Shown: one piece after another, positions 5,288 through 64,000 of the stretch
Layout of the letters: each line of letters starts with the position of its first letter
How positions within the stretch are numbered: the first letter of the stretch is position 1
IMG/VR virus record: IMGVR_UViG_3300020147_000003
Direction: 5' to 3' (one strand)
Length of the DNA stretch: 64,000 nt
Source: an uncultured virus (IMG/VR IMGVR_UViG_3300020147_000003)
Taxonomy: Duplodnaviria; Heunggongvirae; Uroviricota; Caudoviricetes
Program-made: the position numbers and the translations under genes
Notes under the pieces: generated by a model
What the model was told of the DNA's origin: nothing
Databases searched by the model: none
What the model saw: only the letters and a program-made list of their open reading frames with translations

Positions 5288-5309
5288 TTTGTACCGTGCT
5301 TTTTAAGGG

Positions 5310-5342
5310 AAAAGTCACGGGCGGGGTGAGTAGCCGCCCGTG
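5310..5342 (-). terminator. Intrinsic terminator-like hairpin
   Basis: 9-bp stem CACGGGCGG/CCGCCCGTG followed by a short T run on the minus strand. Confidence 0.55.
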
Positions 5343-5375
5343 CTGCTCTCATGAAAATGTTCTTTTGTGCGACTG

Positions 5376-6347
5376 CTATTGGTTCCCGCCGAAAACAAAC
5401 CTTTCCAGCTTGTACTTGCTATTGTTGTTTAGGTAGGCTTGCCAGCAACCATTCGATGGTGCCCATCTAAATCCATTGGCCTTCAGCTTTTCTCGGATAG
5501 ATGCCTCTGGTTTGCCGGGAAAGAAAACCTGAAGTCGGTTCTCCTGAACGTTCTCCACAATCCGAACCCCGTCCGCCCGTTCATTTTCTTTGCTTTGGGC
5601 GGTGGCTCGTTTTTCCAGTTCTTTCAGTCGTTTTTCGCTGCTGCGGATCCGGGCATTGGCGTTGGTGAGCTTGTAGGAGGCAAACCCTATATTTCCGAAG
5701 CAATCAGGTCTTTTTAATATCTCCGAAACGGAAGCGGGAATTCCCATGGAGCCCAATTTTTCAACCTTTTGTTCGTCGGTCAACTTCTTTGCCCGGATAA
5801 CCTTGTTCACCGCCTTCATAAATTCAACTCCGGCCTTTTCATTTTTAATCTTTTCTTTCAGTTCGGCGATGGGGTCAACCTCGGCCCGTTCAGCTTTCCG
5901 CTTTGCTCTGGCCATGCCTTCTAATGCCCTTTCCCGCCATTCGGAAAACTCTTTATAACGTTTTTCTTCTGACCGGTTGGCCTTTTCAGCACGGCGAACC
6001 GGGAACTTCGATGGCCCGGCTATCATAGTGCTAAGGCAGTTGGATTTGGCATAAAGCCAAGCCGAAAACAGCCTTTCGAACTTTTCCCGGTAGCGGTCAA
6101 AGTCTCCTCCCAATTCCTTCACCCTTTCAATATCGGCGGCAAGAAGTTCCGAATACTCTTTAATGTAATACCGGCCCCGGCGCTCGGGTGAAAACGATGT
6201 TCCCCGATGGGCGTCAATGGCTTGCTTCTCATGTTTATGGAGAAGCATCCCTTCGGTGCTTTTCACTTCGCTGTCGGAATAAAGTTTAGTATTGGAGGCA
6301 AGATTTTCCGTTTCCGGAGTTTCGGTGGGAAGATTTTCTGTTCTCAT
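5376..6347 (-). CDS. Conserved phage/plasmid early protein (coiled coil; C-terminal RLQVFF.GKP...LK.NGFRWAPS domain)
   Basis: TSFSPE.R, MIAGPSKFP and GFRWAPS..WQ motifs recur in mobile-element proteins; has its own promoter. Confidence 0.75.
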   Translation of the reverse strand: MRTENLPTETPETENLASNTKLYSDSEVKSTEGMLLHKHEKQAIDAHRGTSFSPERRGRYYIKEYSELLAADIERVKELGGDFDRYREKFERLFSAWLYAKSNCLSTMIAGPSKFPVRRAEKANRSEEKRYKEFSEWRERALEGMARAKRKAERAEVDPIAELKEKIKNEKAGVEFMKAVNKVIRAKKLTDEQKVEKLGSMGIPASVSEILKRPDCFGNIGFASYKLTNANARIRSSEKRLKELEKRATAQSKENERADGVRIVENVQENRLQVFFPGKPEASIREKLKANGFRWAPSNGCWQAYLNNNSKYKLERFVFGGNQ

Positions 6348-6378
6348 TGTACCGTGTTTTTAGTTTGAAAATGTTAGG

Positions 6379-6440
6379 CAAATTTAAACCCCGGTACAGA
6401 CAATCACAATATTTTTTAAATCTTTTTTTAAACTTTTTAC
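6379..6440 (-). promoter_or_regulatory. Bacteroidota sigma-70-type promoter
   Basis: TAAATTTG (-7 box) at 6379-6386 with upstream TTG and an A-rich element. Confidence 0.7.
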
Positions 6441-8914: not shown

Positions 8915-9862
8915 TCAGTTGTTCATCCTGCGGTTATTCCTTTTGGCCCGTTCGAGTTCCTGATGAAGCGTTCCGCATTGATGCATTTTTTCCCGGTAGT
9001 ACATGACAAAGCTCAGGCGAACGGCGTTCCGGTCTTTCATCACAATTGGGGTATTGCCATGCCACTCGTGAACGTTCATCATCAGGATATCGCCGTTGTC
9101 CACATCGAACCCGACTCCCCATTTCGGAAAGACGGTATTTCCCCCGGTGAAGCGCCCTACCTTGAGAACGGTTAAGTTTCCAAACCCTTTTTTGAAGTCG
9201 CCGGCATCTTTATGCACTGCGGTTGGAAAATTCTTGTTTACTGTTACGGTTGTGAACACGGTTCCGGGAATTACAAAGTCGGAAACGGTCTGATTGCACA
9301 TTTCCTGCTGAAGAGCGTATTCTTTCGGCATGAGTTCCTTATAGGCTTCATCGACGCATTTAATAAGCGGGTACGCCTTTTTGAACTTGTCGAAATTATC
9401 ATAGGTGAACGCTGTCAACCGGCAGTATGGGAAACGGCTGCTTCGGTCGAAGTACCCTACAATTCCGCTCTTGGTTGGAACGGCTCGTTCCGTTTTTGAC
9501 AGGGTGCCGTCCTTCTTTACAATGAAATATTTGTGTTTCCCACTCCGGACAATTCCCCTGGCCCCTTCTTTTCTGGCGTGTTGAAGGGCAAGTTTTTCGT
9601 CGAACCCAGCTGCCACTCCCCGGTTATCTCCTTCCACAGCCGCCGCCTTCAGGTTGTCATATGCTGCTTTTTGTGCAAACCCAGGTATCCGCCGTTTCCT
9701 GAATTTTGCAAGGCATTGGCCTGTGCTTTCGCAGTAAACATCTGCGTCCCGGGTGATTAGTATCCTGCAGTCGGATTGTTGAAGTTTTTTCCCAGCCAGA
9801 TCCGCAGTTTGTTCATCGGTGAGCAGAGGCGGAAGAAAAATTTTCTCTACCGTCTTTTCCAT
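8915..9862 (-). CDS. TET/JBP-family Fe(II)/2-oxoglutarate dioxygenase
   Basis: CRLTAF, FTTVTVNKN..TAVHKDAGD (HxD), HEWHGN (distal His), RLSFVMYYR (2OG-binding Arg). Confidence 0.85.
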   Translation of the reverse strand: MEKTVEKIFLPPLLTDEQTADLAGKKLQQSDCRILITRDADVYCESTGQCLAKFRKRRIPGFAQKAAYDNLKAAAVEGDNRGVAAGFDEKLALQHARKEGARGIVRSGKHKYFIVKKDGTLSKTERAVPTKSGIVGYFDRSSRFPYCRLTAFTYDNFDKFKKAYPLIKCVDEAYKELMPKEYALQQEMCNQTVSDFVIPGTVFTTVTVNKNFPTAVHKDAGDFKKGFGNLTVLKVGRFTGGNTVFPKWGVGFDVDNGDILMMNVHEWHGNTPIVMKDRNAVRLSFVMYYREKMHQCGTLHQELERAKRNNRRMNN

Positions 9863-9864
9863 TT

Positions 9865-10539
9865 TTAAAGCCTTTCAAATTCCGCTTTCACGGCATTAAA
9901 TACCGTGTCTGTCAGGTTATCGGTTTCATAGTGTTTCCGCAGTTCAATTTCCATTTGCTTAAAAAGGTCGGCGTTCTCTTTGGTAAGGAAAAGCTGGACT
10001 TGTACGATGTTGGTCAGGTTCAGGTCACCACCTTCATCTCCATCCGGATAGGAATAACCCGCCCCATTCGTTTCGCCCCCGGTCGATTGAAATTCGGGGT
10101 CGTCCTCGTTTCCTTGCGGAAGGGGTATGCCCCATTCTTCCGGGTCGAATCCAAAATCATCTGCCTGTTCCCCCATGGCCTCAAAATCCCAATCCAAGTT
10201 TGCGGCGGCAGTGGCATTGTCGGCGAGGGCCAGTTGCCGAGCTTTGCTGTCTTTATCCAGGTCGAGGTCTTTCCGTTTCACTACGACCAGGATATCCCCC
10301 TCTGTTTCAACAACCAATGCCTTTTTATACCCCGCCTCCAATGCCCGACGTTGGGTTTCGTTTCCGGCAATCAGCTTTCCGTTTTTGTCAACTACAACCG
10401 AGCGCCCCAAGCCTAACTCCCGGATACTTTTTCCTACGAGTTCACCACCTTCTATGGTATGGCGGTTAAGGTTGCGCTCGTCCTGCATTAGTTCCTCGAT
10501 TCCGATCTGCTGCAGGTTGTTTTTTGTCAGTTTGCTCAT
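9865..10539 (-). CDS. ParB/Srx-like N-terminal domain protein
   Basis: N.N.H, SI...G.GRSVVVD...LIAGN, LALADN motifs; acidic linker and C-terminal helical domain. Confidence 0.8.
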   Translation of the reverse strand: MSKLTKNNLQQIGIEELMQDERNLNRHTIEGGELVGKSIRELGLGRSVVVDKNGKLIAGNETQRRALEAGYKKALVVETEGDILVVVKRKDLDLDKDSKARQLALADNATAAANLDWDFEAMGEQADDFGFDPEEWGIPLPQGNEDDPEFQSTGGETNGAGYSYPDGDEGGDLNLTNIVQVQLFLTKENADLFKQMEIELRKHYETDNLTDTVFNAVKAEFERL

Positions 10540-10979: not shown

Positions 10980-11372
10980 TCATTCCACTTTTCTAAGGCG
11001 GTTAGGATTCCTTTTATCCCGATTGGCGTTCACCCTGGCCCTCCTTTCTTCCAAATCGTTCACAATTAGGCCCGTTTTGCTTTTCGCCGATTTATTTCTT
11101 GCCCCCAATTCCTTCTTTTCTTCCTCTGACAATTCCCTGAAAGCCGCCTTGGTTTGCATACCTAGGATGTTGTAAGGAATACCGGGAACAGCTTGCAGAA
11201 AGACATATACCTTGCCCCCGTTCCGCTGTGCTTCTTCCAGTTCTTCAGGGGACATTTGGTAACAGGCTGTGACCATACCTGTAAAGGGGTCTAAGTGGAT
11301 TGGGATGGGATTGGCCCCTGGTACTCCTTCCCCAAGGATTGTCGTTTGGTCTGGAAATGATACTGCTTGCAT
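10980..11372 (-). CDS. Hypothetical protein
   Basis: M..V.FP.Q...G; ..C...SPEELEE....GKV pattern of a small phage protein family. Confidence 0.65.
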   Translation of the reverse strand: MQAVSFPDQTTILGEGVPGANPIPIHLDPFTGMVTACYQMSPEELEEAQRNGGKVYVFLQAVPGIPYNILGMQTKAAFRELSEEEKKELGARNKSAKSKTGLIVNDLEERRARVNANRDKRNPNRLRKVE

Positions 11373-11542
11373 TAATTCCGATTTACTTTGCCGGGCATCC
11401 GGCAGGCAAAAAGGTCACGGTCTTGTAAAAATGGAAAAATGCGAAAAGCAGGCAGGACGCCAGCTTAAATAGAAACCTTGTTGTTGTACCGTGCCTTTTA
11501 GCAGTTACAAATATAGCTTTTTTCAGGAAATGTACACCAACC

Positions 11543-11794
11543 TTAACCAACTTCAAGTGATAGTACATCGTCTGCCGGAACCTTCCGCATCTTCCTAACG
11601 CCTGTTACATCGCCGTGAATTTCCTGATACTTTTCAATTTTGGTCGCAATAACCTCCAGGGTGTCTTGCGCCAACGTAAAGAACTGAACTAGGTCGTCCA
11701 AGGTGTCCATGTTTTTAAACTCCAGACTGGATTCGCATTTCTTGTTCTTTTCAATTATCATGGTGAATTTGGCCTCAATCGTTCTTATTCTCAT
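11543..11794 (-). CDS. Hypothetical protein
   Basis: ATG ORF just downstream of the integrase. Confidence 0.55.
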   Translation of the reverse strand: MRIRTIEAKFTMIIEKNKKCESSLEFKNMDTLDDLVQFFTLAQDTLEVIATKIEKYQEIHGDVTGVRKMRKVPADDVLSLEVG

Positions 11795-11812
11795 TTCTAG
11801 TTGATATTTTAT

Positions 11813-13225
11813 TCAGTTCACCGATGCCAGCAGGGCTAATTTATCTCCAATTCGGAGGTATTTCTGCAACTGGTTGTCTGTGGTGTGGCCCGAAATGATT
11901 CTTAGGATCCGGTCAGGCACCCCTTTTAAGGCAAGGCGGGTAAGGCCCGATCGCCGCAGGTCGTGAGCGCTCACTTCGTCGCAAAGCCGGACCTGGAAAT
12001 CCTCCTGTATTCCACCCCTTCTGGTTGTCCAGTCGATTAGGCGGGTTACCCCGGCGAGCTCGCACAACTCCCTTAACCTTTCGTTGAACGCATCGTACCC
12101 CATCATGTAGGGGTCAGGCTCGTTCAGCACCCGGTCGAAAAGACTGTCGACGGGAATAGATACCAAAGCCTTCGTTTTTTGGGTTTTTATATTCATAACC
12201 CGGCCCCTGTCTGGGATTACTTCAATTCTTTTTTTGTCTATTTTATGCCAATCCGAAAACCGAAGTCCTGTACAAAAACCCCGCAGGGCAAGGTTGCGGA
12301 CATTGGCAAGGTCGGGCCGATGGGAAAGGTCCAAGCTGTCGATAATTTCAAAATCCGATTCGTATAAAATACAAGCGTTCCCGTCCACAAATGGTACACC
12401 GAAACCACGCTCGGAAACATTTGTATTCGAGGTAAGGCCGGCACGTCTACCGGCGTTGACAAACTGAACCACCTTTGCCATTACCTTCGCTGTGTAGTTC
12501 TGCTCAAAGGGCTTTTTCCGGTATTTTACCAATTTGCCGTCCATCTCGAACTCGCATTGTTCCTCTGTGTAGCAGAACTGCAAAAACCTGTCGCGCCAGT
12601 TCCAATTTATGTCGTCGAAGTCGAATTTACCGTACAGGTGGGCAAAGGCCAGAAGATGTTTCCGGGCTGTCGTTAACCCTTCGGTTTTTTTCTTCTCCAC
12701 GAAATCTTTTATGAATTCAAAGTAGGTGAGAGATAGACCGGACCGCCCGAACGCCAATTGGCGAATATCCGGCGCTTCGGTAAGTTTACGCAGGAAGGAA
12801 AGGAGGCTTTCTTTTTGGCTGGGTCCGATCTCATCGAGGCGTCGCATGGCTCTTTTAGGTTCTTTGCAATAAATCTCCATCCAGGCAGAAAGAGGAAGGC
12901 AAAACTCCTCCGGCTTATCACTAAAAACCGTTTGCCGGAACTGCTCCGGAGCAAGGCCCGGTTTTTCCTTCCATTTTTCGGACAGCTTTCTGTCGAATGC
13001 ATCAAGCCGGTCGTTCACCTGGGCATTTCCGGATTCGGCATCTTTAAGCCTTCCGTTCCCTTTTCCCTTTTTGTTCGGTAACCACTGTTTCGCCTTTACC
13101 TTCTCCCCTGGGAAGATCTTGTATACCATTCCGTTGAACTTGGCAAGGAAGAAAACGGCTGCCTCACCGTGTTTATCTATGGTTTGCAACTTGGCTTTAA
13201 AAAGCGGTCGAACTGTTTTCGGCAT
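11813..13225 (-). CDS. int: Tyrosine recombinase / phage integrase (Bacteroidota type)
   Basis: TGLRFSD (R), TQKT (K), SAHDLRRS (HxxR), SGH, QKYL (Y); N-terminal arm-binding-like region. Confidence 0.93.
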   Translation of the reverse strand: MPKTVRPLFKAKLQTIDKHGEAAVFFLAKFNGMVYKIFPGEKVKAKQWLPNKKGKGNGRLKDAESGNAQVNDRLDAFDRKLSEKWKEKPGLAPEQFRQTVFSDKPEEFCLPLSAWMEIYCKEPKRAMRRLDEIGPSQKESLLSFLRKLTEAPDIRQLAFGRSGLSLTYFEFIKDFVEKKKTEGLTTARKHLLAFAHLYGKFDFDDINWNWRDRFLQFCYTEEQCEFEMDGKLVKYRKKPFEQNYTAKVMAKVVQFVNAGRRAGLTSNTNVSERGFGVPFVDGNACILYESDFEIIDSLDLSHRPDLANVRNLALRGFCTGLRFSDWHKIDKKRIEVIPDRGRVMNIKTQKTKALVSIPVDSLFDRVLNEPDPYMMGYDAFNERLRELCELAGVTRLIDWTTRRGGIQEDFQVRLCDEVSAHDLRRSGLTRLALKGVPDRILRIISGHTTDNQLQKYLRIGDKLALLASVN

Positions 13226-13852
13226 CGTGTGTCATTCCTTATTATGGGTTACTTTGGGGTTATTTTTAATTCCGGGCTGGTATCACAAAACTATCCCAAA
13301 AGTTCCCTTTTTAAAAACTTTTTAAATCTTTTTTTAAACTTAATGTATCTTTTCTGATACTTTAGGGGAAAAGGAAAGAGATGGGAAGTTTTTCGGGGAC
13401 GTATGATTTTTTTATCTCCCTTTGATATTCAGGGCTTTGTAATTTAATGTTTCTTTTAGGTGCCGTTTAGGGTTACTTTTATTAAAGCGACCTGACTGCC
13501 CAATTTGAAGGTAAATAACTTTAAATGCAAAGAAAATGTTTGCTTCGGCAAGCTGGACAAAAACCTTTCCTGAAAAAAAGAGGGAGGCGTATTGGTTTCA
13601 AATTATTACCCAAGCCTTGGCCGCAAAAAGCAGCAGAGCCAGAAGGATAAAAAAAGCGGTTTGTAATTTTTCATTTTGAAACGTTGGGGGGGTGGTGAGA
13701 AAAAAGCCGGGGCCGAAGCCCCGAGCAGAGATTACCCCTAGAACACCATCAAATCATGGTTAAAATGACCATTGTGCATCCAATTAGGCCGACCACAATC
13801 ATTAGCCAGCCGTTCCGGATGAATGTTTTTATTGGCTCTATCATGCGCTCCA

Positions 13853-14401
13853 TCATGCGGCGATTTGGCGTTTGATAGATTTGATTTTCTTTTTTGAGGA
13901 AACGCTGCCGAACAGGTTAGCAGCGTTTTTTCCTTCGAGTAGGTATCCGGTCAGGATTGCATCGGCCACTTCAATAACTTCAAAGCCGGCGTCCCCTTCT
14001 ACAAAATCATACAGGTTATAAATACGGTCTTGGTAAACTTCATCGCCGCAGACTCGCAGATAACTGCCCCCGTCTGCCTTGGCTAGTTCGGAAGAAACGA
14101 TTGCTTGCCGCGCTTCGAACTCGGTAAGCGTGAGGGTGAATAACTTTCCCCGGTCCGTTTCCCCGAAAACCTTTACCGTATCGTTTTCAACGACGTAAAG
14201 AAGTTTGATTTCGCAGTCGTCGCTAAGGCTGTATTCAGCCGCACGACGGCAGCCCGTAACCTTTGCTATCAACCCAATTTTTTCCGTGGGAAAACTGAAT
14301 TTCTGGACAGTGAAGAAAAAGTTGGTAGGATCGGAAGAGTGAAGCCTCTGAAGGGCTTCAATTGCCTTTTTGGAAAGGCGGGTTGTTTTAATCGTTGCCA
14401 T
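13853..14401 (-). CDS. Hypothetical early protein
   Basis: Own promoter-like element and start-associated motif; terminator-like hairpin downstream at about 13700. Confidence 0.75.
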   Translation of the reverse strand: MATIKTTRLSKKAIEALQRLHSSDPTNFFFTVQKFSFPTEKIGLIAKVTGCRRAAEYSLSDDCEIKLLYVVENDTVKVFGETDRGKLFTLTLTEFEARQAIVSSELAKADGGSYLRVCGDEVYQDRIYNLYDFVEGDAGFEVIEVADAILTGYLLEGKNAANLFGSVSSKKKIKSIKRQIAA

Positions 14402-14502
14402 TTGTACCGTGTTTTTAGTTGAAAATTAATGACAACAAATTTCGGCCTTCCAAATGAGAAAAGCAATATTTTTTAAACTTTTTTCAAAATTATTTATACT
14501 TT

Positions 14503-14868
14503 TTAAAATAGCTGCAATTGCCTACTAAGCGCTTCCTGGGCCTCCATTTTTTTTTGACAATTTTTGTCAGGACAAAACTTTCGGTGAACTTCCGGTGGGA
14601 CCTGCCGGCGGTAATGGTGAAGGAGCTCGCAGGTAAATTTCCATTGCTCAGGAGAGAGCGGGCTTTTGGGCCTATACCTTAGCTTTTCACCCATGGCATC
14701 CCGGAATTTTTGAGCCTTGCCTGGGTAAAAAATTACGACCTTGGTTAAAGCCTCGATTGCTTCCTTTTCAATTGCAGTCACGGTTTGCTCTTTTTGTTTG
14801 CGTACCGTGAATTTTAGTATTCCAAATTTAACCAATCGAACAGAAATAAAAAAGCCCCGGTTCAACAC
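14503..14868 (-). CDS. Hypothetical protein (start uncertain)
   Basis: LSPEQW....LLH.YRRQ motif; ends QLQLF. Confidence 0.55.
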   Translation of the reverse strand: MLNRGFFISVRLVKFGILKFTVRKQKEQTVTAIEKEAIEALTKVVIFYPGKAQKFRDAMGEKLRYRPKSPLSPEQWKFTCELLHHYRRQVPPEVHRKFCPDKNCQKKMEAQEALSRQLQLF

Positions 14869-14900
14869 CGAGGCTTTTACAGTTTTATCAGATCGGAAAA

Positions 14901-15626
14901 CTATTTCTTTCTCCAGGCTATTTCCGCCCCTGCAAAAACTTCTGCACCTGTAAGGTTAAATGTGCTGGTATTGGTCCAGGCGCCGCCGCCAAGGAAAAAG
15001 TTTTTTCGCCGATAGTGTAGTCTTGCCCCGGCAAATGTTCCGGCCATGGTCGAAGGGGAAACCCAATCCAGCCTGAGCGCCAGCGCCACACCGATGGCCG
15101 TGTTCTTTGTCGCATTCCGGGTTTGTTGACGGTAAATTTCTGGCAGGGTGAATGTGATAAATGGCGGGGCAAATAGCTCCCCCAAAACCATAATATCCAG
15201 CTTCAGGCCGATACCTTCAGGTGTAAGGGTATCGATTTTGTAAAGGTTGGGTTCTTGGTTTTCTGCAACCGTTTCGCCTACTCCTTCGTCTTCCAGGCCT
15301 GACCCAACCTCGCTTTCCACTGCCTCGAGTTCAGCGATAGCCGCTTCTTTTCCCTGAATTATTCTCTCATAGTAATCCCTTTGGGATTTCAGTTTTTCCA
15401 GCAGGGCTTGCAACTCTTTTTTGTTGGAAACAACATAGGTCTTGGTTTGCGGCAAGCGAACTGGCTTAGGAACCGGGTCGATCGTAAGTGGGCGTTCCTT
15501 CCAAATCGTGTCTTGTTTTACTGTTACAGTTTCCTTGCTCCTAGCCGATGGACCACTACACTTTCCGATAAAGAAAAAAACGGCTGCAACCAGAAGAAAG
15601 GCAACGATTGTCGATATATGTTTCAT
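14901..15626 (-). CDS. Membrane-anchored coiled-coil protein (spanin-like candidate)
   Basis: N-terminal TM helix, DTI..E.P segment, coiled coil, beta-rich C-terminus. Confidence 0.55.
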   Translation of the reverse strand: MKHISTIVAFLLVAAVFFFIGKCSGPSARSKETVTVKQDTIWKERPLTIDPVPKPVRLPQTKTYVVSNKKELQALLEKLKSQRDYYERIIQGKEAAIAELEAVESEVGSGLEDEGVGETVAENQEPNLYKIDTLTPEGIGLKLDIMVLGELFAPPFITFTLPEIYRQQTRNATKNTAIGVALALRLDWVSPSTMAGTFAGARLHYRRKNFFLGGGAWTNTSTFNLTGAEVFAGAEIAWRKK

Positions 15627-15868
15627 GGCTTAATTTTAAAAGTGGAGCTTTCCCTTTAAGAGAAAAAGCCCCCGGACGCGTTATGTACCGTGTTTTAGAG
15701 CCACACATTTAGGGGGGGTGTGGCATTCCCCTGGCTGACGGCTAAAAGCCGCTGTGTTCAATAAGATTGTTCACAATTGTTTGTCCGGTAGTTTCCTCGA
15801 AAAGAGTAGTATGTTGCCTGGCGAGTGCGAAGCAAAATTAATTGAATTTATACTATTTCAAATACTTC

Positions 15869-16114
15869 CTAAACTTTTTCTACAATATTTTGACCTTTTC
15901 GAACGGAAGATCTTTCCCGGAATCTGATAAAGGCTTCGGCGAGGTTGGTAAATTCATGGCCACCCACAAGGGTACTAACGGCCCCTGGGATTCTGAGCTC
16001 GTATACGTCATCTTTGAAATGTAGAATTTCAAGGCGGGTTTCTGATGGATCTCCGTTGGCCGGGTAGGCGACGTTATCCACGAGAGCGGCGGAGGCTAGA
16101 GGTGAGCGATTCAT
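15869..16114 (-). CDS. Small hypothetical protein
   Basis: ATG ORF. Confidence 0.45.
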   Translation of the reverse strand: MNRSPLASAALVDNVAYPANGDPSETRLEILHFKDDVYELRIPGAVSTLVGGHEFTNLAEAFIRFRERSSVRKGQNIVEKV

Positions 16115-16838: not shown

Positions 16839-16845
16839 ATCCTGT

Positions 16846-17262: not shown

Positions 17263-17277
17263 TTTTTCGGATTGCTT

Positions 17278-20528: not shown

Positions 20529-20530
20529 GA

Positions 20531-21475: not shown

Positions 21476-21576
21476 TTGTACCGTGTTCTTAGTTGAGAAA
21501 AAAACACCCCGCAACCTTTGCGTTACAGTCACGGGGGTTCATCATGTTATGAGAAAAATCTAACAAAAAAGTTTCG

Positions 21577-22961: not shown

Positions 22962-22991
22962 CTAAATCTTTATTTAGCGCTGGTGCATGTT

Positions 22992-23387: not shown

Positions 23388-23421
23388 TTTTGTACCGTGT
23401 TTTTAGTTTGAAAATGTTAGG

Positions 23422-24169: not shown

Positions 24170-24186
24170 TGTACCGTGTTTTCGAA

Positions 24187-25572: not shown

Positions 25573-25608
25573 TTGTACCGTGTTTTTTAACTTGATTTCT
25601 AGTTCACG

Positions 25609-27832: not shown

Positions 27833-27886
27833 TATTGTACCGTGTTTTTATTGTCCTCGCCTCTACTCCTCAAGACAAGGGTATCG

Positions 27887-30601: not shown

Positions 30602-30620
30602 TTGTACCGTGTTTTTTAGA

Positions 30621-34504: not shown

Positions 34505-34690
34505 GCTATTTTATCGGATACTGTGTAGGGCTTTTTGTCTACATAAAAAACATGATTATCCATGTCCCAACCTATCGGCAAGGATTTTCGGATGGTGCAA
34601 GCATGAAGGTTTTAAAAGTTTTGAAAAAAAAGTACCAAAAACATTTGGCAAAATTGCTATTCCCGTTACGCCTGTCTATTTTTGCCGCCG

Positions 34691-35047
34691 ATGAAACAAG
34701 ACCGGCACAGCGGGAACCGACTGAAAAAAGTCCTGCTGCATCTTAGGAAACAAAAGGTTACGCGCATACGTTTCGCGGAGGAATGCGGCATAAAAACCGT
34801 AACCATGTCATTCTGGTTTGACATGGAAAAATTCGGTGCGGTTGTGTGGAATAAGCTGGAACCTGCTCTTAGGAAGTACAACATTAATCCAGCTTACGTC
34901 CAGGGGACAAGCGATAAAATGGTATTAAGCGAGGAACCAATTTTGACCGAAAGAGAGTGGCAGCAAGACTTGATGAGTCTTTTAAAAGAGATGAACGGCC
35001 TGCTTCGTGAAATCCTCCAAGAAGTTAAAAAGCCTGACGCCCAATAA
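34691..35047 (+). CDS. XRE-like HTH regulator (repressor candidate)
   Basis: NRLK..L.......FAE.CGI...T.S.W and INP.Y..G..D.M; TATTTTTG box 6 nt before the ATG. Confidence 0.7.
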   Translation: MKQDRHSGNRLKKVLLHLRKQKVTRIRFAEECGIKTVTMSFWFDMEKFGAVVWNKLEPALRKYNINPAYVQGTSDKMVLSEEPILTEREWQQDLMSLLKEMNGLLREILQEVKKPDAQ

Positions 35048-35100
35048 AGATGTACCGTGTTTTTTAGTTCAATAGTGTTACTATTCTAAGAAACACATTC

Positions 35101-35127
35101 GGCGGCCTCCAAGCCGCCTTTTTTATT
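35101..35127 (+). terminator. Terminator between convergent units
   Basis: GGCGGC-ctccaa-GCCGCC plus T run. Confidence 0.7.
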
Positions 35128-36654
35128 TTACTCATCTTCAGCTGGATCCGGTACTCCCTCCACCCCTTCAGGGTACACCACTAAAGTGTCCTCTACTAAG
35201 TCGAAATCAACCCCCTCGTTTACAATCCAATCCGTTTCCGTCAGAGCCGGGCAAGCCGGTGTTGCCGTCCTTACCTTAAAAGCCGTAGCCGAACCGATGG
35301 TGAATTGAACTCCCGCGCCGTTGAAGTTCGCCGCTGTATCGGTTACTGCAATCCATTCGTTTCCATTTTCATCCTTCAGCACTATTTGAATAAGCGTGTT
35401 TTCGAAGGTATTACCGGCAACAGTGTAAGGCGTGCCAGGTGTCGAGGTGGTTACCTGGGGCGTATCGTACAGAATATTCGAATAAGCGAAAAAATAGAAA
35501 TCGCCCCTGGCAAGTTGACCTGTTTGACTGTCGTGGACGGTTCGCCATGACGAATAGTTTGCCGGGCCTGGGGAAATGTAAGTAGAGCCGTTCCATTGCC
35601 TCAACACCAAAAGACCAGAAATTTCAACAATGACATAATCGCCATTATTGAAACTATGGTTTGCGCCAAATTCGTCCGTCCAGTATCCGCCGGTGTACTC
35701 CGCCGACCCGTTGGTAATAATTGCGGCACATTCGGTTGCGGAAGGAAGGCAAGCCCCTTCAGCCGGTGTGTAGGCGCTGGATAAATATCCTGTACCGTGC
35801 TGGGTATTTGTGGTTTGGTTCAGGTGGAACAGAATTTCAACTGCGTAGAGGTTGCCAGCACCCACGGCTTTGGCATCGGGCAAGAGCCGCCAAATCTTCT
35901 CGTAAGTAATCCCGTTGTAGGTAACTGTTTTTTTGTCGTGGAGAGGAATTAAGGTAAGGGAATCAACCAGGTATTCCGGGCAAATAAATCGGAAGGAGAA
36001 TTCTTTAAACCGGGTAATTGTCCGAATCGATTCTACCCCGTCCCGAACTTCGCTTTGTTGTTCGAATTTCCAGCCGTGGATGGCCAGATCCGACTTCAGG
36101 TAAACCCACCACTTAAAAGGCGCTACGTACCGAATATGGGAAGCCGTTTTTTTAACCCCGCCAATTTCTTCAAAATCCAGGTGCAAATCCTTCAGATTCC
36201 ACCATTCCAATTTGACATAATCCCGCCTGTCTTCAAGCCCATCCATAAAAGTAAAAAGGCCAATAAACACCCAATTCCCATCTTGGTCCTGAAGCCGAAG
36301 GTAATGCACACCTTCATTTATTCCGGAAACCGGCAACTGCACCGAGCCGGGGTAAACCCAGACATCATAATCACCATAGGCACCCGTCCCATCGTATTCC
36401 ACAATTTCCAGCCCCGTCAATTCCATTGCCGTTTTCACATTCGTAACGGCTCCGGTTTCGAAATTAACAAGCTCTATTTTCGTCCATGTCCAGCCGTTCA
36501 ACTTAATCAACTGAAAGGGGGGGATAACTCCAAGGGGGGTATTTAATATGCTTGTTCCCTGAGCGTGATTATAAGGCAATCGGTGGTCGAATTGCTTAAC
36601 GTCTTCTACGATTTGCAGAAGATTAAACCTGGGTTCAAGCCTTAGAATTGACAT
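35128..36654 (-). CDS. Virion structural protein (tail/baseplate region)
   Basis: Long beta-rich acidic ORF, co-oriented with the virion module and preceded by the putative late motif. Start placed at MSILRL. Confidence 0.6.
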   Translation of the reverse strand: MSILRLEPRFNLLQIVEDVKQFDHRLPYNHAQGTSILNTPLGVIPPFQLIKLNGWTWTKIELVNFETGAVTNVKTAMELTGLEIVEYDGTGAYGDYDVWVYPGSVQLPVSGINEGVHYLRLQDQDGNWVFIGLFTFMDGLEDRRDYVKLEWWNLKDLHLDFEEIGGVKKTASHIRYVAPFKWWVYLKSDLAIHGWKFEQQSEVRDGVESIRTITRFKEFSFRFICPEYLVDSLTLIPLHDKKTVTYNGITYEKIWRLLPDAKAVGAGNLYAVEILFHLNQTTNTQHGTGYLSSAYTPAEGACLPSATECAAIITNGSAEYTGGYWTDEFGANHSFNNGDYVIVEISGLLVLRQWNGSTYISPGPANYSSWRTVHDSQTGQLARGDFYFFAYSNILYDTPQVTTSTPGTPYTVAGNTFENTLIQIVLKDENGNEWIAVTDTAANFNGAGVQFTIGSATAFKVRTATPACPALTETDWIVNEGVDFDLVEDTLVVYPEGVEGVPDPAEDE

Positions 36655-53604: not shown

Positions 53605-53769
53605 TGTTGTACCGTGTTTTTCCCCGCTTTGCCTGCTCCTAAGCGTCTGCGGATTGATAGAACAAATATAAAGACATTCTATTAAAAAAGCGGGGTTTAA
53701 TGCCCCGCCCGTTCCGCCCAGCAATGGCCGGCTCCACGCAGCCGGGGTCTAAGGGCGGAATGTTTCCTG

Positions 53770-54309: not shown

Positions 54310-54906
54310 TTAAACCTTTTTCGCTTCGAGGTTAATTCCAAACAACTTTAGGAAGGCCGTCAGGCCCATTCCGCTAACTACGACGCCGAACATTCCGGCT
54401 AGATAAAGGAGCGCCTCCATGACTGTCCAACTTCCTTCACCTTTAAATAATACGATGCCTGTACCGGTGACCAAGAGGCTGGAAAACAACAAAAGGTACC
54501 GGGTGCGAATGGTATTAAAGGCATTTTGAATTTTGCCTACTGTTCCGGGCGGCACGTTTTTAAATAAGGACAGTAGCCTGGTTAAAATCGCCACTATGGT
54601 ACCTCCAGCGGTAAACAGGGCAGCGATTTTCGCTATCCACCACTCAACTCCCTCTTTTGTGTTTGGTAACGGTGCCCCTCGGAATTGCGCCCCGAAATCC
54701 TGGCCCAGGGCTTTGCCGCGCAAGGCCAGCGCCTTTCCTTCTTCCCCGCAGGTGTTTACCCACCGGGTAACATCTTCCAGGTATGCGCCCAAAAGGCTGT
54801 CGTTTACGATAGCCGTGCCGCTGTGTTGAATGTTTTCCGGAACCTGGGCCACGGGGGAAAACTGAAGCGTGATCAGAAAAGTGAGAAGCAAAAAATACTT
54901 TTTCAT
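54310..54906 (-). CDS. Multi-TM membrane protein (lysis-associated candidate)
   Basis: Signal peptide plus three TM helices; next to the holin. Confidence 0.65.
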   Translation of the reverse strand: MKKYFLLLTFLITLQFSPVAQVPENIQHSGTAIVNDSLLGAYLEDVTRWVNTCGEEGKALALRGKALGQDFGAQFRGAPLPNTKEGVEWWIAKIAALFTAGGTIVAILTRLLSLFKNVPPGTVGKIQNAFNTIRTRYLLLFSSLLVTGTGIVLFKGEGSWTVMEALLYLAGMFGVVVSGMGLTAFLKLFGINLEAKKV

Positions 54907-54972
54907 GTACCGTGTTTTTTAGAAAGTGTATCGGCTTTTCAGAAGGCAAAGCCCACCGCCAAACCATTATTT

Positions 54973-58102: not shown

Positions 58103-58624
58103 TTACGGATTATCCTCGGTAAGGAATGCGACCGTACGTAAAGCTGTGCTTTGCGTGGACGTTGGAGTAATAGTTCGCAATCGAAGTCGACCTCGTAGGA
58201 TCGTACCGGAAAGCCGGGCTTTGGTAGACACCCCGTCAATCGCGCCGGTGGTAACGTTGTACCAGTCGTTCCCCGAAAATTCCAGGCTGTTCTGAAGGAA
58301 ATAAGTCGCCCCGGTCGAACCTGAAAGGCTGTCGGCGAAAAGGTCAACATGGTAGTTCATCGGCCCGAAAAAGGTTCCTATGTCATAATCGGAGGTGTCC
58401 TTGCTGGAACTGGCAGACAACGTATCGGTTTGCTTTTCAACAAACTGGCGTACTACGTTAAGGGCATATTCAGAAGGCACTCCTTCCGTGGGAACATCGG
58501 CGGGAACTTCGACCTGGGCGGGGGCACCTGCAGCAGATCCGGTTTTTTCAGCCCCATTGAAGCAAGCCAAAAAACAAGAGGCTGCAATAAGCCCAAAAAT
58601 GATAAGGAAAAGATATTTTTTCAT
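58103..58624 (-). CDS. Lipoprotein-like / exported protein
   Basis: Signal with Cys (LIAASCFLAC); S/T-rich beta domain. Confidence 0.6.
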   Translation of the reverse strand: MKKYLFLIIFGLIAASCFLACFNGAEKTGSAAGAPAQVEVPADVPTEGVPSEYALNVVRQFVEKQTDTLSASSSKDTSDYDIGTFFGPMNYHVDLFADSLSGSTGATYFLQNSLEFSGNDWYNVTTGAIDGVSTKARLSGTILRGRLRLRTITPTSTQSTALRTVAFLTEDNP

Positions 58625-58689
58625 CGCTAGATAATTGTGGTTAAGATTGAAGCACAGCTAAATTTTACTTCAGCTGTGCTTACCAATCA

Positions 58690-59766
58690 TTAGGCTTTGG
58701 AAATATCGAACTTGATAATCGGCGTCGGAATAGTAGCAGGATTGCTATTGTAGGTCGTGATAAAGCACACGTCGAAAGCGAAGTCGTAGACCTGGACGAC
58801 GTCCCTGGTCATGTCGGCAGCATCGGCACCGCCGATATCCGTTGCGGCGTTCACCGCGCCTTCGTAGTAGTACGTACCAACTTCGATGTCCAGAAGCGGC
58901 AGGCGGACCGTACCCCATTGGTGGCCATCGGCGGTTTTGCTTCCGTACAGCGCCGGGCGCTCTACCCTGGTCATCATGCCAAGGCAGCCATCTGCGATGG
59001 CGAACCCGGTAGCGTCCTTACCCACGGCGTTGTTAATGCCGCTGGTGAAGTGGAAGAATTTACCGGCAAAAGGCAGGGTTTTGTCCTCCTGATTGAACTG
59101 GCCGAAACCTTCCATCCGGCGCATGATGCCGTCATAGTAGTTGTTTGCTACGATGTCCAGTGTGTTGATGGGCGAACCAACCTGGTTACCGTACATCCGC
59201 ATCGAACGGAGCATTCCGGGAAGGTCGTGCAAAATGTAGCTGTCCTTCAGGTTTCCAATGCCGGTTTCGGACACCACGTTGCTCGCAAAGGTGTGGCCAC
59301 CGGGTATTTGCGGGATAACCTGCGTTTTCGATGCATCCATTTTGGCAATGGCCAAAGTTTCAAGGCTGTCGGAAAATCCTTCCAGCATGGAAAGGAACTT
59401 CCGCTCGAAATCCCGGAGCAACCCGATATAGTTGTTGTGATACAGGTTCGGGTAGATGTGGAAACCGTAGGCCAGGGTGGTGAACGTGTAGGTAGCGAAG
59501 GTCGAAGTATTCTCGTCGATCGGAATCGTCAGCGGCCGGGTAGAACGGATGGTTACCCCCTTGCGGTTAATAACCGGCGTTTTCACCGTTTTGCCCATCG
59601 AGGCAAAAATTGTGTTTTTCAAATCGTCGGTGACGATGCTGCCGGGCGCCATGGTTTGGCGCTTAAAGGCATCGTAAGCTCCGAGATTGTTAATCCGGTT
59701 CTCGAACTTGTCGAGGTTCGGGTTCATGTCGATTACGTCCTGAACCCGGGACAGTATTAAAGACAT
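58690..59766 (-). CDS. Major capsid protein
   Basis: 358 aa, follows the scaffold; resembles Bacteroides siphophage major head proteins (MSL..R.Q, GA.D.F..QT, YNS......PIIKF.I). Confidence 0.75.
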   Translation of the reverse strand: MSLILSRVQDVIDMNPNLDKFENRINNLGAYDAFKRQTMAPGSIVTDDLKNTIFASMGKTVKTPVINRKGVTIRSTRPLTIPIDENTSTFATYTFTTLAYGFHIYPNLYHNNYIGLLRDFERKFLSMLEGFSDSLETLAIAKMDASKTQVIPQIPGGHTFASNVVSETGIGNLKDSYILHDLPGMLRSMRMYGNQVGSPINTLDIVANNYYDGIMRRMEGFGQFNQEDKTLPFAGKFFHFTSGINNAVGKDATGFAIADGCLGMMTRVERPALYGSKTADGHQWGTVRLPLLDIEVGTYYYEGAVNAATDIGGADAADMTRDVVQVYDFAFDVCFITTYNSNPATIPTPIIKFDISKA

Positions 59767-59877: not shown

Positions 59878-60870
59878 TTACTGTGGTGGAAGCTCGGAAA
59901 CCTTATGTTCCTTCCGTAGCTCTTGAAACTTGTTATTAAACTCCGGATGGCTGGTTGAAATCTGCTGACTCTTCAGATAGTCAAGAATCGCTTCGTCTGC
60001 TTGCACCCTAGTTTTTGCTGCCCTTACTCCGTCCAGACTGACGCCCGTTCCGCCTCCCCCTCCGGCGCTTCCGCCATTGGTTCCGGCCCCGCCTTGCTTC
60101 CTTCCTTCGTCAATCAGGTCAACTTTTTTCAACCTGGTCAACAAAAGTTCGGCGGGAGAGTATGGGTTTTGGAAGTTGGCAGGGTTTAATGCAATTTCGC
60201 CTGTCTCCTTGTGGCGGAATTGAATGGTTTCCTTACCATCGCTACCCTTAACCAATTCCGGAACGTATTCCTGCAGGATGGCGGCTTTCGAAGAGTTCAC
60301 CAGTTCTGTAGCTGCGGCTTCAGGATAAACGGAGCGGAATTTTACCCCCTGAAGGGCCTGGGCAAAAGCAAAGTCAGTTTTCATTTTCACGAATTCCTGG
60401 TCTTTTGCTTTCAAGGCGTCCTCTTGCGCCTTGGATAATTCCCCGACCTTTCCCTGGAGTTTCTTGTTCTGGGCTTCCATGTCCCTAACCAACTGCTCGG
60501 TGGTTTCCAACTTCTTTTTTAATACCGCGTCTGCGGTACCTTCGGCAATCTGCTTTTTCAGGTTTTCGACTTCCTCTTTTGCTCTTTTGAGGTCATCGCT
60601 ATTGCCAGCTTTTTCAGCAGTGGTTTTGTACTCTTCGAGGACCGACTTCATAAATTCATAAGTCTTTACCTTTTCCGGTCTCTCCTTGCCGGTAATGGAT
60701 TTTATGTCCTCGTCGAAGCGACGGTAGATTTCACCCGTTTGGGTATCAATCTCCTTTTTGACGTCCACTTTTAACTGGTTATTACCCAGTTCGATGACAG
60801 CGTTCACCACTTCATCGGTGAGAGAGGCCAACACAGGATTGGCCTTGATAATTTCGGCTGTGAAAGGCAT
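59878..60870 (-). CDS. Capsid scaffolding protein
   Basis: Coiled coil, Gly-rich GAGT linker, between portal and capsid. Confidence 0.7.
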   Translation of the reverse strand: MPFTAEIIKANPVLASLTDEVVNAVIELGNNQLKVDVKKEIDTQTGEIYRRFDEDIKSITGKERPEKVKTYEFMKSVLEEYKTTAEKAGNSDDLKRAKEEVENLKKQIAEGTADAVLKKKLETTEQLVRDMEAQNKKLQGKVGELSKAQEDALKAKDQEFVKMKTDFAFAQALQGVKFRSVYPEAAATELVNSSKAAILQEYVPELVKGSDGKETIQFRHKETGEIALNPANFQNPYSPAELLLTRLKKVDLIDEGRKQGGAGTNGGSAGGGGGTGVSLDGVRAAKTRVQADEAILDYLKSQQISTSHPEFNNKFQELRKEHKVSELPPQ

Positions 60871-60918
60871 GTTGTGTACCGTGTTTTTTAGTGAAAAAAG
60901 TGTTTCTGTTTTTTCCCG

Positions 60919-61359: not shown

Positions 61360-63076
61360 ATTGAATTAAAATTTCGGTGACTATTTCTATCCGCTTATTG
61401 AAGTCAAGGGCTTGCGAGGCAAATGTGGTTAAGTCGCCGTGTTCACGCTCGAACCTTGCAATAAGTGTAGAGAAATTGAATTTCAAATAAATCAGCTCCG
61501 GAGGCGCTGTTCCGAGGTTCTTTACCTCGTCGGCTGTCTTGTGCCGGAAGGGGTCTAGGTGTAAAAGGATTTTTTCACGCTGCTGCATTATAGGGTCGAA
61601 CCTGTAACGTGCTGCCAAATAATCCTCCCAAAGCCTGTCCAAGACCGAGGCGTTGGCCCCCGCCTTCCTTCTATCCTCGTACTGTGTCAAAAGGTCGTCG
61701 GCGCGGAGGATATGAAATTCTGTTCCCAGGTTTATCGTCGCACCCATGAACACCCGTTGGCCGTACCTTAATCTTGCCATTGTTTCTTCCGTCCACTTCT
61801 GGAGGGATTCAAAATTTGGCTTTAAATTGATAAGGGCTTGGGTTTTGGCATCTACTATTGCCCCTACCTGTTTTTCGTTCACCGCTTGGTCGTTCACCGC
61901 CTCATTTTCAGCGCCGGTCACATCGATGAATATGGCTTTCCTAAGCCTGTCCACCTCCTGGGAATTGTATTCCAGGCTGACATTTTCAGCCGGAACCACC
62001 CCTACCGGATCGCCAAGGTCCTTTTCATCCTGTTTGGGCATTGGTTTTCCGACAAAACTTCCCGCTCCGAGTAGCTTAGATTTCGAGCATACCGGACACC
62101 GGTGCAATGCCCCGGTTCTCCCATCGACCTGGTACTGCCCACTTCCATCCCGGAGAAATCCGACATGGCATTGTAAGTAAATGCCCCTGTCCCGGTCCTC
62201 CTGAACGAACGTACATTTAGGCGCATAGCCCCAGTAGATTGGATATTGCGCCGTCAGCTCGTTCACCCGTTTAGAAATCAGGTAAGCTAAAAGCCAGTCT
62301 AATTCCCCGAGGTGTTTGCTCAACGGGCTTTCCTTTAAATCAGTCGTGGCGTTGCTGACCGGGTCCGTCCACATCCAGCGGACAGGCGTATACCCAAGGT
62401 CGTGAGGGATTTCGGTTTCTACGCCCACTATTTCGGTGCTTCCTTTTCCCTTCAGTTTGAAAATCCTGTAATGGGTTTGGTCGAACCAAGCCATACGGTC
62501 CTCCCCAAGGGGGAATGCAATCCATCGGAAGGCCTCACCATCCCATTCGTAGTCGTGAACGGCTTCGATATTGAGAAGGTAAGGGTATGGCTCTGGAAGG
62601 TCGCCTTCTTGCTCCTGGGGCAAATCAACCACGACAAGGGAATTCACCCTGCCCTCTACCAACGTGTCAAAGACCTTTCGGCGAAAGAAACCGGGTAGCT
62701 TTTTCATCTCCCGGTAAACTTGCCAATCTTGCGCCGCTTCCGGCGCATTGAAATCGTACTGCTGCACGGGATTTCGGCCGTCAAAAACCTTCTCCAGAGC
62801 AGCGAAAATCTTTTCCGTAAAAGCTACCGTTGGAAGCGGAAAACGAAAAAGGACACAGAACAGGTTAAATTTTTCGGGCTTGCTTAAAACCCCTTCCCAC
62901 CAGTTCAGGAATTCCGTTACCGCAACCCCAGCCGCTAGAGCATCGCCTTGTGCAAGATTTAGGGTACCGTGCAGGCGAAGCCGCGCCTCATGCCTTGCCG
63001 CCCTTGCGAGCCGGTCCCGATTTTTCTTGCTCTTCAGCAGTTCCCTGATTTCCAGGGTTGTCAGCGGTTGCGGCAT
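61280..63076 (-). CDS. Portal protein
   Basis: 598 aa; HDLGYTP, YPI, FE...K.......RYG, F....RFERE; insert with C..G...CPVC. Confidence 0.75.
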   Translation of the reverse strand: MPQPLTTLEIRELLKSKKNRDRLARAARHEARLRLHGTLNLAQGDALAAGVAVTEFLNWWEGVLSKPEKFNLFCVLFRFPLPTVAFTEKIFAALEKVFDGRNPVQQYDFNAPEAAQDWQVYREMKKLPGFFRRKVFDTLVEGRVNSLVVVDLPQEQEGDLPEPYPYLLNIEAVHDYEWDGEAFRWIAFPLGEDRMAWFDQTHYRIFKLKGKGSTEIVGVETEIPHDLGYTPVRWMWTDPVSNATTDLKESPLSKHLGELDWLLAYLISKRVNELTAQYPIYWGYAPKCTFVQEDRDRGIYLQCHVGFLRDGSGQYQVDGRTGALHRCPVCSKSKLLGAGSFVGKPMPKQDEKDLGDPVGVVPAENVSLEYNSQEVDRLRKAIFIDVTGAENEAVNDQAVNEKQVGAIVDAKTQALINLKPNFESLQKWTEETMARLRYGQRVFMGATINLGTEFHILRADDLLTQYEDRRKAGANASVLDRLWEDYLAARYRFDPIMQQREKILLHLDPFRHKTADEVKNLGTAPPELIYLKFNFSTLIARFEREHGDLTTFASQALDFNKRIEIVTEILIQYVEEKIQRAEPPERRGEPASAGVGVN

Positions 63077-63218
63077 TTTCTGTGGTTTTCTGTTCGTCCT
63101 CCGCCAACCGCCAGCCGTTTTCGTGCTTATTCGTCGGATGGTTTAAAATCGCCTTGGCGTGTTCCTCATCCACCCAAATCGGGTCGTTGGTCGGACAAAC
63201 GAGTTTTACTTTTTTCAT
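62988..63218 (-). CDS. Small hypothetical protein
   Basis: HA..IL.....NGW.L pattern; between tail tube and portal. Confidence 0.55.
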   Translation of the reverse strand: MKKVKLVCPTNDPIWVDEEHAKAILNHPTNKHENGWRLAEDEQKTTENAATADNPGNQGTAEEQEKSGPARKGGKA

Positions 63219-63229
63219 GTCAAAGGCTA

Positions 63230-63865
63230 TTAATTAGCCAAGCCGGTTAAGGCATTAAAGTCCGAGGGTGTTACCTCGTACAATACATTGTCCCAACCGT
63301 CTGGCAAGTAGAATTCAAGGGTGTTGAAGCCACGGGTATTTATGGCATCACCTTGGCGACCGCTTACCTTCAGCTCTTTGATATCGATTCCCCTTGCCTT
63401 CGTGGGAGAGGAATTGGCATCGGCTGACATAATAATCCGCCCGAACCCGTTGATAAGGTGAACTGTCAAATCCTCACCGTAGAGCTTACGGAGTTCCTCG
63501 ATTGTTTTCGAAACCCGTGCGGTTACCTTACAGGTAAACTTGCCGGGACCGAAACCAACGAATTTGGGAATACCCCCAGCGGTTTCACCGGGTCCGCCTT
63601 CTTCGTAGACTTGCCCCGGTTCGAAAACCGGGTTGTCAATTTCGAAGGGCGTAACAATTGCTTTCGTGCCGTTGACGGCAGTAAGCAAGGGAGTCCAACT
63701 AGCGATAAGATTTGGATTTGCTGAAGCGATGGTCAACTCGTTTAGAGTTGTGCCGGAGGAGTATTTGCGCTGGAAGATTAACTTCCGAACCTCACCGATC
63801 TGTAAACAGCCGTTGGAAATGGCGGTAAGAGAGGCAGCTGACGACCCGCAGAAATTTGTGAGCAT
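63230..63865 (-). CDS. Major tail (tube) protein candidate
   Basis: C...GE..KL.FQR, ASW..LL.A...TK...TP, GG..ET.GGI, W.......P.DFN.LT.L. Confidence 0.6.
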   Translation of the reverse strand: MLTNFCGSSAASLTAISNGCLQIGEVRKLIFQRKYSSGTTLNELTIASANPNLIASWTPLLTAVNGTKAIVTPFEIDNPVFEPGQVYEEGGPGETAGGIPKFVGFGPGKFTCKVTARVSKTIEELRKLYGEDLTVHLINGFGRIIMSADANSSPTKARGIDIKELKVSGRQGDAINTRGFNTLEFYLPDGWDNVLYEVTPSDFNALTGLAN

Positions 63866-64000
63866 TGTACCGTGCTTTTTAGTATTCTAGCCTCGGCCTG
63901 CTCTTAAGCACTTGGCTTTTAATTCAAAAAGAGAAGCAGTGCAAATGTATTGTATTTTGTATTTAAAAAACAAATTTTAATATCAAAAATTTTTGACCCA

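Follow-up and report, generated by a model that had tools for sequence, protein, structure and literature searches.

The DNA considered here, referred to as the window, is a stretch of 64,000 nucleotides (nt) from an uncultured member of the Caudoviricetes (IMG/VR record IMGVR_UViG_3300020147_000003), in which a short word, TGTACCGTG, called the tag in what follows, is found in 17 exact copies, all on the plus strand; 100 shuffles gave a mean of 0.26 copies and a maximum of two. On the minus strand the tag reads CACGGTACA and has an A-tract, often with CT, upstream. Thirteen copies end −1 to 4 nt upstream of an ATG (the gaps being 2, 0, 1, 1, 3, 0, 1, 3, 1, 3, −1, 4 and 0 nt), for which a rough binomial estimate gives a chance of about 3e-28. 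The other four copies comprise two in longer leaders (11485 and 15684), one inside a gene (35791), and one, at 35051, which is the only copy antisense to the local genes, the remaining 16 being sense. Apart from this last one, the copies are distributed as follows; family labels were given to the tagged genes at a cut-off of E ≤ 0.001.

5290..5298, minus strand: tag, 2 nt before the ATG of the PAPS-reductase gene 4310-5287
6348..6356, minus strand: tag, 0 nt before the ATG of 5376-6347 (PHROG primase label); TAnnTTTG box 22 nt upstream and AT-rich box
11485..11493, minus strand: tag, in the leader (about 110 nt) of 10980-11372; TAnnTTTG box 14 nt upstream
14403..14411, minus strand: tag, 1 nt before the ATG of 13853-14401; AT-rich box upstream
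15684..15692, minus strand: tag, about 58 nt before the ATG of 14901-15626; hairpin directly downstream
21477..21485, minus strand: tag, 1 nt before the ATG of the exonuclease gene
23391..23399, minus strand: tag, 3 nt before the ATG of the WYL_2-like gene; 42-nt promoter-leader identical to that at 6348
24170..24178, minus strand: tag, 0 nt before the ATG of the endonuclease/resolvase-like gene 23648-24169
25574..25582, minus strand: tag, 1 nt before the ATG of the C5 methylase gene
27836..27844, minus strand: tag, 3 nt before the ATG of 26768-27832 (no family)
30603..30611, minus strand: tag, 1 nt before the ATG of the SNF2/N6-N4 methylase fusion, with which the large genes of the leftward early block begin
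35791..35799, minus strand: core-only copy inside the fibre-like gene 35128-36684, with no A-tract; probably a chance occurrence or a weak internal site
53608..53616, minus strand: tag, 3 nt before the ATG of 52498-53604; CTTAGGAGCAG box upstream; weakest predicted target (−1.2 kcal/mol net)
54906..54914, minus strand: tag, overlapping the A of the ATG of 54310-54906
60875..60883, minus strand: tag, 4 nt before the ATG of the virion protein gene 59878-60870
63866..63874, minus strand: tag, 0 nt before the ATG of 63230-63865 (phrog_8193); CTTAAGAGCAG box upstream

An exact-word search returned all 16 start positions given in the first-pass annotation plus the copy at 35791, which had been overlooked, and recomputing the distances bore out its count of 13 copies with gaps of −1 to 4 nt to an ATG. 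Its statement that all copies share one orientation is right for the DNA (17/17 on the plus strand) but not relative to the genes, where 35051 is antisense; likewise, the T-run said to follow the word (the A-tract of the minus strand) is missing at 35791. That the tag is no Shine-Dalgarno (SD) sequence is correct, as CACGGTACA has no SD core, and so is its occurrence before early as well as late genes, namely before replication, methylase and virion genes. Among the gene labels, PAPS reductase, C5 methylase, SNF2/N6-N4 methylase, exonuclease and WYL_2 (the latter scoring below its cut-off) were recovered, but four genes have no family at E ≤ 0.001 (26768-27832; 52498-53604, an open reading frame (ORF) given as 52498-53724; 54310-54906; 13853-14401). 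Of the virion genes, 63230-63865 matches phrog_8193 'major head protein' and 59878-60870 matches 'virion structural protein'.

Beyond approximately 10 nt the flanks are unrelated at most tag sites. A TAnnTTTG box, which we take to be the Bacteroidota −7 consensus, lies within 90 nt of 6/17 copies and within 25 nt of 3/17, and one promoter-leader block of 42 nt is duplicated exactly (6347-6388 and 23390-23431). About 11 kb of plus-strand genes are devoid of any sense tag.

Several further words and sites were seen around the tags. An AT-rich box, AAGTTTAAAAAA(TATT), is located on the minus strand at 6420-6435, 13341, 14480, 23466, 30865 and 31226, ahead of early promoter-like regions, and a TAnnTTTG box often comes after it. 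The word CTTA(G/A)GAGCAG, a candidate late promoter or activator site, is found upstream of late genes at 63908, 53643, 44970 and 36695 (minus strand), twice just before a tag. At 14801 (minus strand) there is a near-tag whose last base is G (wobble), with a promoter-like sequence upstream, 19 nt before a GTG possibly starting 14503-14868. The region 11372-11500 (minus strand) holds a promoter box, a tag and a downstream seed-like stretch pairing with the tag in cis; it may function as a sponge or as a leader switch operated by RNA. Finally, CCCCGGCGCT is a polar word with seven copies, on the plus strand only and mostly intragenic (6175, 29761, 31100, 49840, 49963, 53139 and 61294).

A mirror copy behind a helix-turn-helix-like gene

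The antisense copy is embedded in the following arrangement.

34677..34684, plus strand: TAnnTTTG box, 6 nt before the ATG of the helix-turn-helix (HTH) gene; one of two plus-strand boxes in 31100-35050
34691..35047, plus strand: XRE/Cro-CI-like HTH gene, 118 aa, whose 3′ untranslated region (3′UTR) carries the seed
35048..35124, plus strand: candidate antisense small RNA or 3′UTR, with open 5′ UGUACC, stem, inner hairpin and terminator
35051..35059, plus strand: seed UGUACCGUG, mirror of the tag; its U6-AGUU extension pairs with the A-tract of the leaders
35101..35124, plus strand: intrinsic terminator (six G-C pairs, U6); the hairpin is also on the minus-strand list, with a weaker tail

The copy at 35051 starts three bases past the stop of 34691-35047 and 40 bases before the plus-strand terminator; no other intergenic anti-motif in the window stands in front of a terminator, G·U variants included. 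The first-pass annotation had listed this copy without recognizing it as the mirror; read on the plus strand, it provides the concrete partner for the small-RNA site raised there as one option. In the computed fold, UGUACC (35051-35056) is single-stranded while 35057-35067 is paired with 35086-35096, the 3′ arm mimicking part of the tag. The fold of the 35048-35124 tail has a z of −6.18 (0/200 shuffles); that of the opposite strand is weaker (z −4.17).

Among 411 candidate stretches, this RNA stretch is the best partner of the 13 start-associated leaders outside the leaders' own loci, with predicted pairing of 14–20 bp. At the five positions adjacent to the core, 61/65 pairs in the 13 leaders are Watson-Crick, 4/65 are G·U and none is a mismatch; in other starts, G makes up 71 of 282 non-A bases. 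When the cost of opening both structures is included, net co-folding has a median of −8.9 kcal/mol (range −1.2 to −13.8), with 9/13 leaders at or below −8, as opposed to a median of −2.4 kcal/mol and 1/77 for 77 other starts.

The HTH gene is placed by ESM Atlas at 0.92 with HTH clusters, which is a lead only; it has 13 relatives, a weak match to phrog_2967 'transcriptional regulator' (E 8e-4) and no Pfam match above cut-off. It may encode the immunity repressor, and the box at 34677..34684 is its probable leaderless promoter. A second probable leaderless gene, 31252-31684 (plus strand), has TAAATTTG 5 nt before its ATG, heads the plus-strand block and has no family match. Rfam yielded only two tRNA matches in the window and nothing near gathering score at 34600-35400.

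The phage, its host and neighbouring genes

The portal and capsid proteins are 27–40% identical to those of Croceibacter, Bacteroides, Parabacteroides, Elizabethkingia and Flavobacterium phages and, because they match phages of that phylum, the host is probably one of the Bacteroidota. The phage is called temperate on account of one gene:

11813..13225, minus strand: tyrosine integrase (PF00589 above cut-off)

Three sequencing runs containing the phage are soil metagenomes (DNA); their reads over 11201-31100 come from practically identical phage and reveal no joint between tags.

The start-associated pattern has one match each in 18 of 401 Bacteroidota genomes, among which the phage's own host may not be, and the reversed control in 16/401. 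A stricter pattern, which fits only 4/13 start copies, gave six single matches in unrelated taxa of the genome collection, which may likewise lack the true host. On these two scans a host initiation signal was rejected; of the options in the first-pass annotation, it is the phage-specific, start-associated translational regulon that they support.

Elsewhere in the window, there is a tRNA-Met(CAT) at 31036-31109 and a tRNA-like Rfam match at 21577-21692 (minus strand; 33.8 bits), which has a long insert and was not called by ARAGORN. A Tet/JBP-type 2OG-Fe oxygenase gene lies beside a ParB-like gene (8915-10539), and a PAPS-reductase/DUF3440 and ParB pair is located at 39584-41322; the window also encodes a second PAPS reductase and two methylases, and all of these are possible DNA-modification modules. 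The end of the tape-measure gene (326-1471) is on the plus strand while the other virion genes (to 63865, from 42666) are on the minus strand, and plus-strand blocks interrupt the late region.

Related phages with other words in the same layout

When 15 related records with the same virion genes were scanned for start-associated words, one clear case emerged, P2559S; TCUEAP2 joined later. The top words of G406 and MT835637 are tandem repeats, and G409/G410 have an A-rich word. In P2559S the word ACCGAGAGC is present seven times, six times before an ATG and once reversed, the reversed copy being located after a TATATTTG box, in a hairpin loop and before a terminator (z −4.08). Near-copies of the word precede two more genes, and the layout is kept in the close variant G418 though several target genes differ; in viral contigs at large the P2559S word gave at least 119 single, uninformative matches. 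A third word, AACAAACGA, is found in G416 and G417 (7 and 10 forward copies, respectively, and one reversed copy each between a TATATTTG box and a terminator). Of the G417 forward copies five are 1–4 nt and two 7–8 nt before an ATG, while three have none, and the fold of the reversed copy has a z of −4.41 in the sister record of G417. The window shares its layout, but not its sequence, with the putative P2559S-type RNA.

A scan with a Gp3-like protein led to 256 loci, of which 80, mostly gut-type, were kept and, being close kin, counted as one lineage. A homologue of the P2559S RNA is present in 68 of the 80, always on the strand opposite the genes; therefore, the element flips relative to its neighbours and the strand with promoter and terminator is always the mirror. 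A TAnnTTTG box, in five variants, accompanies 66/68 homologues (control, 481/16000). Among 140 permutations, the complement, AGAGCGA, comes out on top at first-ATG starts (115 sites, mean 3.8). In 70 loci collected with a shorter pattern, the gene-strand copy has no ATG behind it in 51 and no 45-codon ORF in the other 19, so that it is not merely another start tag. The gut-type alignment contains seven one-sided stem changes, all from C-G to U-G, so that a U-G pair is kept on the RNA strand. Six cultured phage records contain the element; one of them is PDS1, in which it overlaps the ends of gp10 and gp11 as annotated on the opposite strand.

Unannotated putative RNA family of about 75 nt in P2559S, TCUEAP2 and gut Bacteroidales phages, without Rfam match: L415 3990-4110 (PDS1 about 4380-4500, minus strand); L049 24789-24911 (minus strand); L024 30510-30621 (plus strand)

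Rfam gave 0 matches in five related loci. The literature searched, in which few subscription papers are covered, describes neither the tag nor an RNA of this kind for these phages, and the accessible text of the PDS1 papers makes no mention of "sRNA", "antisense" or "non-coding". In yet another lineage (L028-L032, L043 and L047), a common word, GCGAACGAGCCAGC, is located approximately 20–30 nt before the late genes encoding capsid and MP2 homologues.

Interpretation and known systems

Tags, mirror copy, fold, pairing and the recurrence of the layout with other words in relatives were all established from sequence and by computation. That an RNA is made and represses is inferred from them, and we consider it probable that these features make up a phage small-RNA regulon which blocks translation initiation of lytic genes. 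The tags would be target sites of one phage-made antisense RNA, supplied by the plus-strand transcript of the HTH gene, or by its cleaved 3′ piece, as an RNA ending in hairpin and terminator. The open UGUACC would dock on GGUACA beside the start codon, whereupon the RNA would unzip its own stem and pair over 14–20 bases across the A-rich leader; this would cover the landing site of the ribosome and reduce protein synthesis from 13 lytic genes, early and late, among them genes for replication, modification, recombination and the virion. If the HTH protein is the immunity repressor, the RNA might act in lysogeny as a back-up at the level of translation; in relatives reported to be lytic, an independently promoted RNA would be more of a damper or timer.

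A number of observations weigh against this regulon. No relative with CACGGTACA was found, among the matches listed, by pattern, capsid and HTH searches of viral contigs and metagenomes: the pattern had no match in viral contigs, and other pattern scans yielded only the same phage and at least 115 loci, all unrelated, in metagenomes; neither the 325 candidates from a capsid alignment against metagenomes nor the 24 for the HTH protein (no phage record) included a relative. Further, 13/15 relatives with the same virion genes do not have such a layout at the thresholds used, and the 80 Gp3-like loci are close kin. A cruder control for AGAGCGA at starts gave 175 versus 170, and 24 aligned gut-type sequences contain no two-sided covariation. 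A model, R1, built from P2559S/PDS1-type anti-AGAGCG RNAs (alignment A5), had no match in the window at E ≤ 1 (33 sources searched); as no homologue of the window RNA was detected, there is no covariation for its seed either. Within the window, the wobble changes are transitions, which mutation favours, so that the point from pairing is modest; distal pairing positions are mismatched at 24170, 27836 and 53608, and raw duplex energies are favourable by construction. The window RNA has no promoter of its own and relies on the HTH transcript, and 35051 is also 77 nt beyond the end of a minus-strand late gene, possibly as a stranded sense copy. All candidate RNAs, in the window and in relatives, are known here from sequence and computation alone, and approximately 1.7 kb of the 65,754-nt contig lie outside the window.

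Four other explanations were considered. One is that the tags are DNA sites akin to the stoperators of cluster A phages, that is, asymmetric sites of 9–14 bp at which a phage repressor blocks transcription, with the copy behind the HTH gene being autoregulatory. The cluster A sites are 13–14 bp long, number 20–30 copies and bind the repressor (PMC6550527); as in that description of a temperate phage group, the tag is non-palindromic, has many asymmetric copies oriented with transcription (16 of 17 in the window) and coexists with an integrase and an HTH gene, and three or four tags are just behind promoter boxes. However, repressor sites predict neither a fixed distance of −1 to 4 nt to an ATG nor the one antisense copy in a hairpin of z −6 with terminator, nor that P2559S, G417 and 68 other loci should have a mirror copy furnished with a promoter and a terminator of its own; about 11 kb of plus-strand genes have no sense copy, and the accessible text does not tie stoperators to start codons or a mirror RNA (PMC6550527). 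This explanation is unlikely.

The same low probability is given to a leader signal read by a protein or the ribosome, where the tag would be a translational enhancer or an operator for an RNA-binding protein and the hairpin at 35051 a decoy or leftover. Tight spacing to the ATG and the A-rich context do fit Bacteroidota initiation by upstream adenines in the absence of SD pairing (PMC6847099, PMC7797042), and the hairpin's 3′ arm resembles part of the tag. Yet three unrelated words are found in this position, each accompanied by a corresponding mirror RNA, and in 401 genomes of the host phylum the window's word is no commoner than expected by chance. Candidate proteins are not common to P2559S; of the two RNA-binding proteins proposed in the first-pass annotation, the ASCH-like ORF has no match in 14 relatives including P2559S and the WYL-like one a single weak match.

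Very unlikely as the main cause is a recombination or cassette footprint like the PeSL of T4-type phages, which flank variable ORFans and act as recombination sites (PMC2839356); promoter-leader blocks would have been copied by short-homology recombination, with the 9-mer as the junction. The likeness lies in repeated blocks of promoter, AT-rich box and stem-loop before genes, including the exact 42-nt duplicate (6347-6388 and 23390-23431); hairpins precede many gut-type tags, the genes behind tags differ between P2559S and G418, and an exonuclease and Gp3-like pair is common to the tag-bearing relatives. The role of a recombination junction, also among the earlier options, is nevertheless weak as the main one because the tag precedes conserved head, replication and methylase genes; in contrast to PeSL, most window tags stand before core genes and have no promoter, let alone promoter and stem-loop for each copy. 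Flanks beyond approximately 10 nt are mostly unrelated, and the mirror copy flanked by promoter and terminator is left unexplained. Block copying, of which the 42-nt duplicate is an example, may still be the route by which tags spread, with the RNA as the reason why they were kept. An RNA that exists but acts as an activator of translation, either by melting inhibitory hairpins in the leaders or as a guide for processing, is hardly credible: several tags do follow hairpins, and in the leader at 11485 the tag is folded against a seed-like stretch, which the RNA would dislodge, but pairing reaches to within 4 nt of the AUG, inside the ribosome footprint, where it usually represses.

If the antisense regulon is true, one cause that can be tested would account for an orphan repeated motif, and a tag written by the phage would, together with its RNA, offer an economical means of tuning many genes at once in hosts whose ribosomes ignore Shine-Dalgarno sequences. 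The test moves to cultured phages, P2559S of Croceibacter atlanticus and PDS1 of Parabacteroides distasonis; for the latter, RNA-seq has already been mapped to the genome (10.1101/2024.11.17.624012). More tentatively, and with rather more doubt than confidence, it is suggested that private translation regulons are widespread among phages, each made up of a single small RNA and a matching tag at selected starts, with seed and tags changing together between lineages; in the window this would ride on the repressor message as a second, RNA-level immunity against 13 lytic genes, and it may explain the start-associated sequences (SAS) of some cluster K mycobacteriophages.

GcvB, DapZ and CpxQ are host small RNAs with multiple targets or derived from 3′UTRs; they depend on Hfq, which Bacteroidota are not known to have, and their targets are degenerate. 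In common with them, the window RNA would have one seed for many leaders and a terminator shared with the parent mRNA, whereas here the phage's own genes are targeted through an invariant 9-mer.

The cluster K SAS has 13 nt with the consensus GGGATAGGAGCCC, contains AGGAG and is found only before non-structural genes, 3–7 nt from the start (PMC3203893); its role is stated as unknown (PMC11373665, PMC12699233), and the mirror RNA is offered as a hypothesis for it. Both are asymmetric phage-specific words of 11–19 copies in one orientation, a few nt before an ATG and absent from the host, but the window tag has 9 nt, no SD core, a distance of −1 to 4 nt from the start and no sequence likeness to SAS, and it precedes virion genes as well (60875 and 63866). 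The parallel drawn in the first-pass annotation therefore extends to placement, orientation and host absence (as judged from genomes of the presumed host phylum), and not to SD core, consensus or gene class. Four K1 phages have a single reversed SAS copy, and that of Adephagia sits in a hairpin loop with one C-C mismatch to SAS. There, at 58599-58724 (L196 28600-28725), a 430-nt intergenic gap contains two strong hairpins, the second with the SAS mirror in its loop (z −6.5); the intergenic stretch is matched by 193 phage records. Among nine further cluster K phages at this locus, the loop is kept in three (Peanam, LilPharaoh and LastHope) and changed in two (Ekdilam and Hammy), while no reversed SAS was found at the locus in SirPhilip, Oscar, Pixie and Rando14; the reversed exact core, GGGATAGGAG, is absent from 4/5 whole cluster K records. 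The SAS mirror loop is a partial lead to the same logic in cluster K.

In mode of action, the comparison is with the c4 antisense RNA of phages P1 and P7, to which the P4 CI RNA is related. The c4 RNA controls an antirepressor message (PMC12197685) and, like the RNA proposed here, is a structured phage RNA of about 77 nt which pairs in trans near a ribosome-binding site through loop-exposed sequence, related phages having different specificities. An exposed seed complementary to ribosome-binding regions in trans was computed for the window RNA too. None of the 13 tagged genes matches an antirepressor family (four have no family at all). The differences are that one seed would face 13 leaders, early and late, where c4 has one antirepressor message, and that the window RNA, which has no Rfam match, would form the tail of a regulator's message and has its toehold on the 5′ side. 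The feature itself is real, and its probable kind is that of phage antisense control, c4-like but with many targets.

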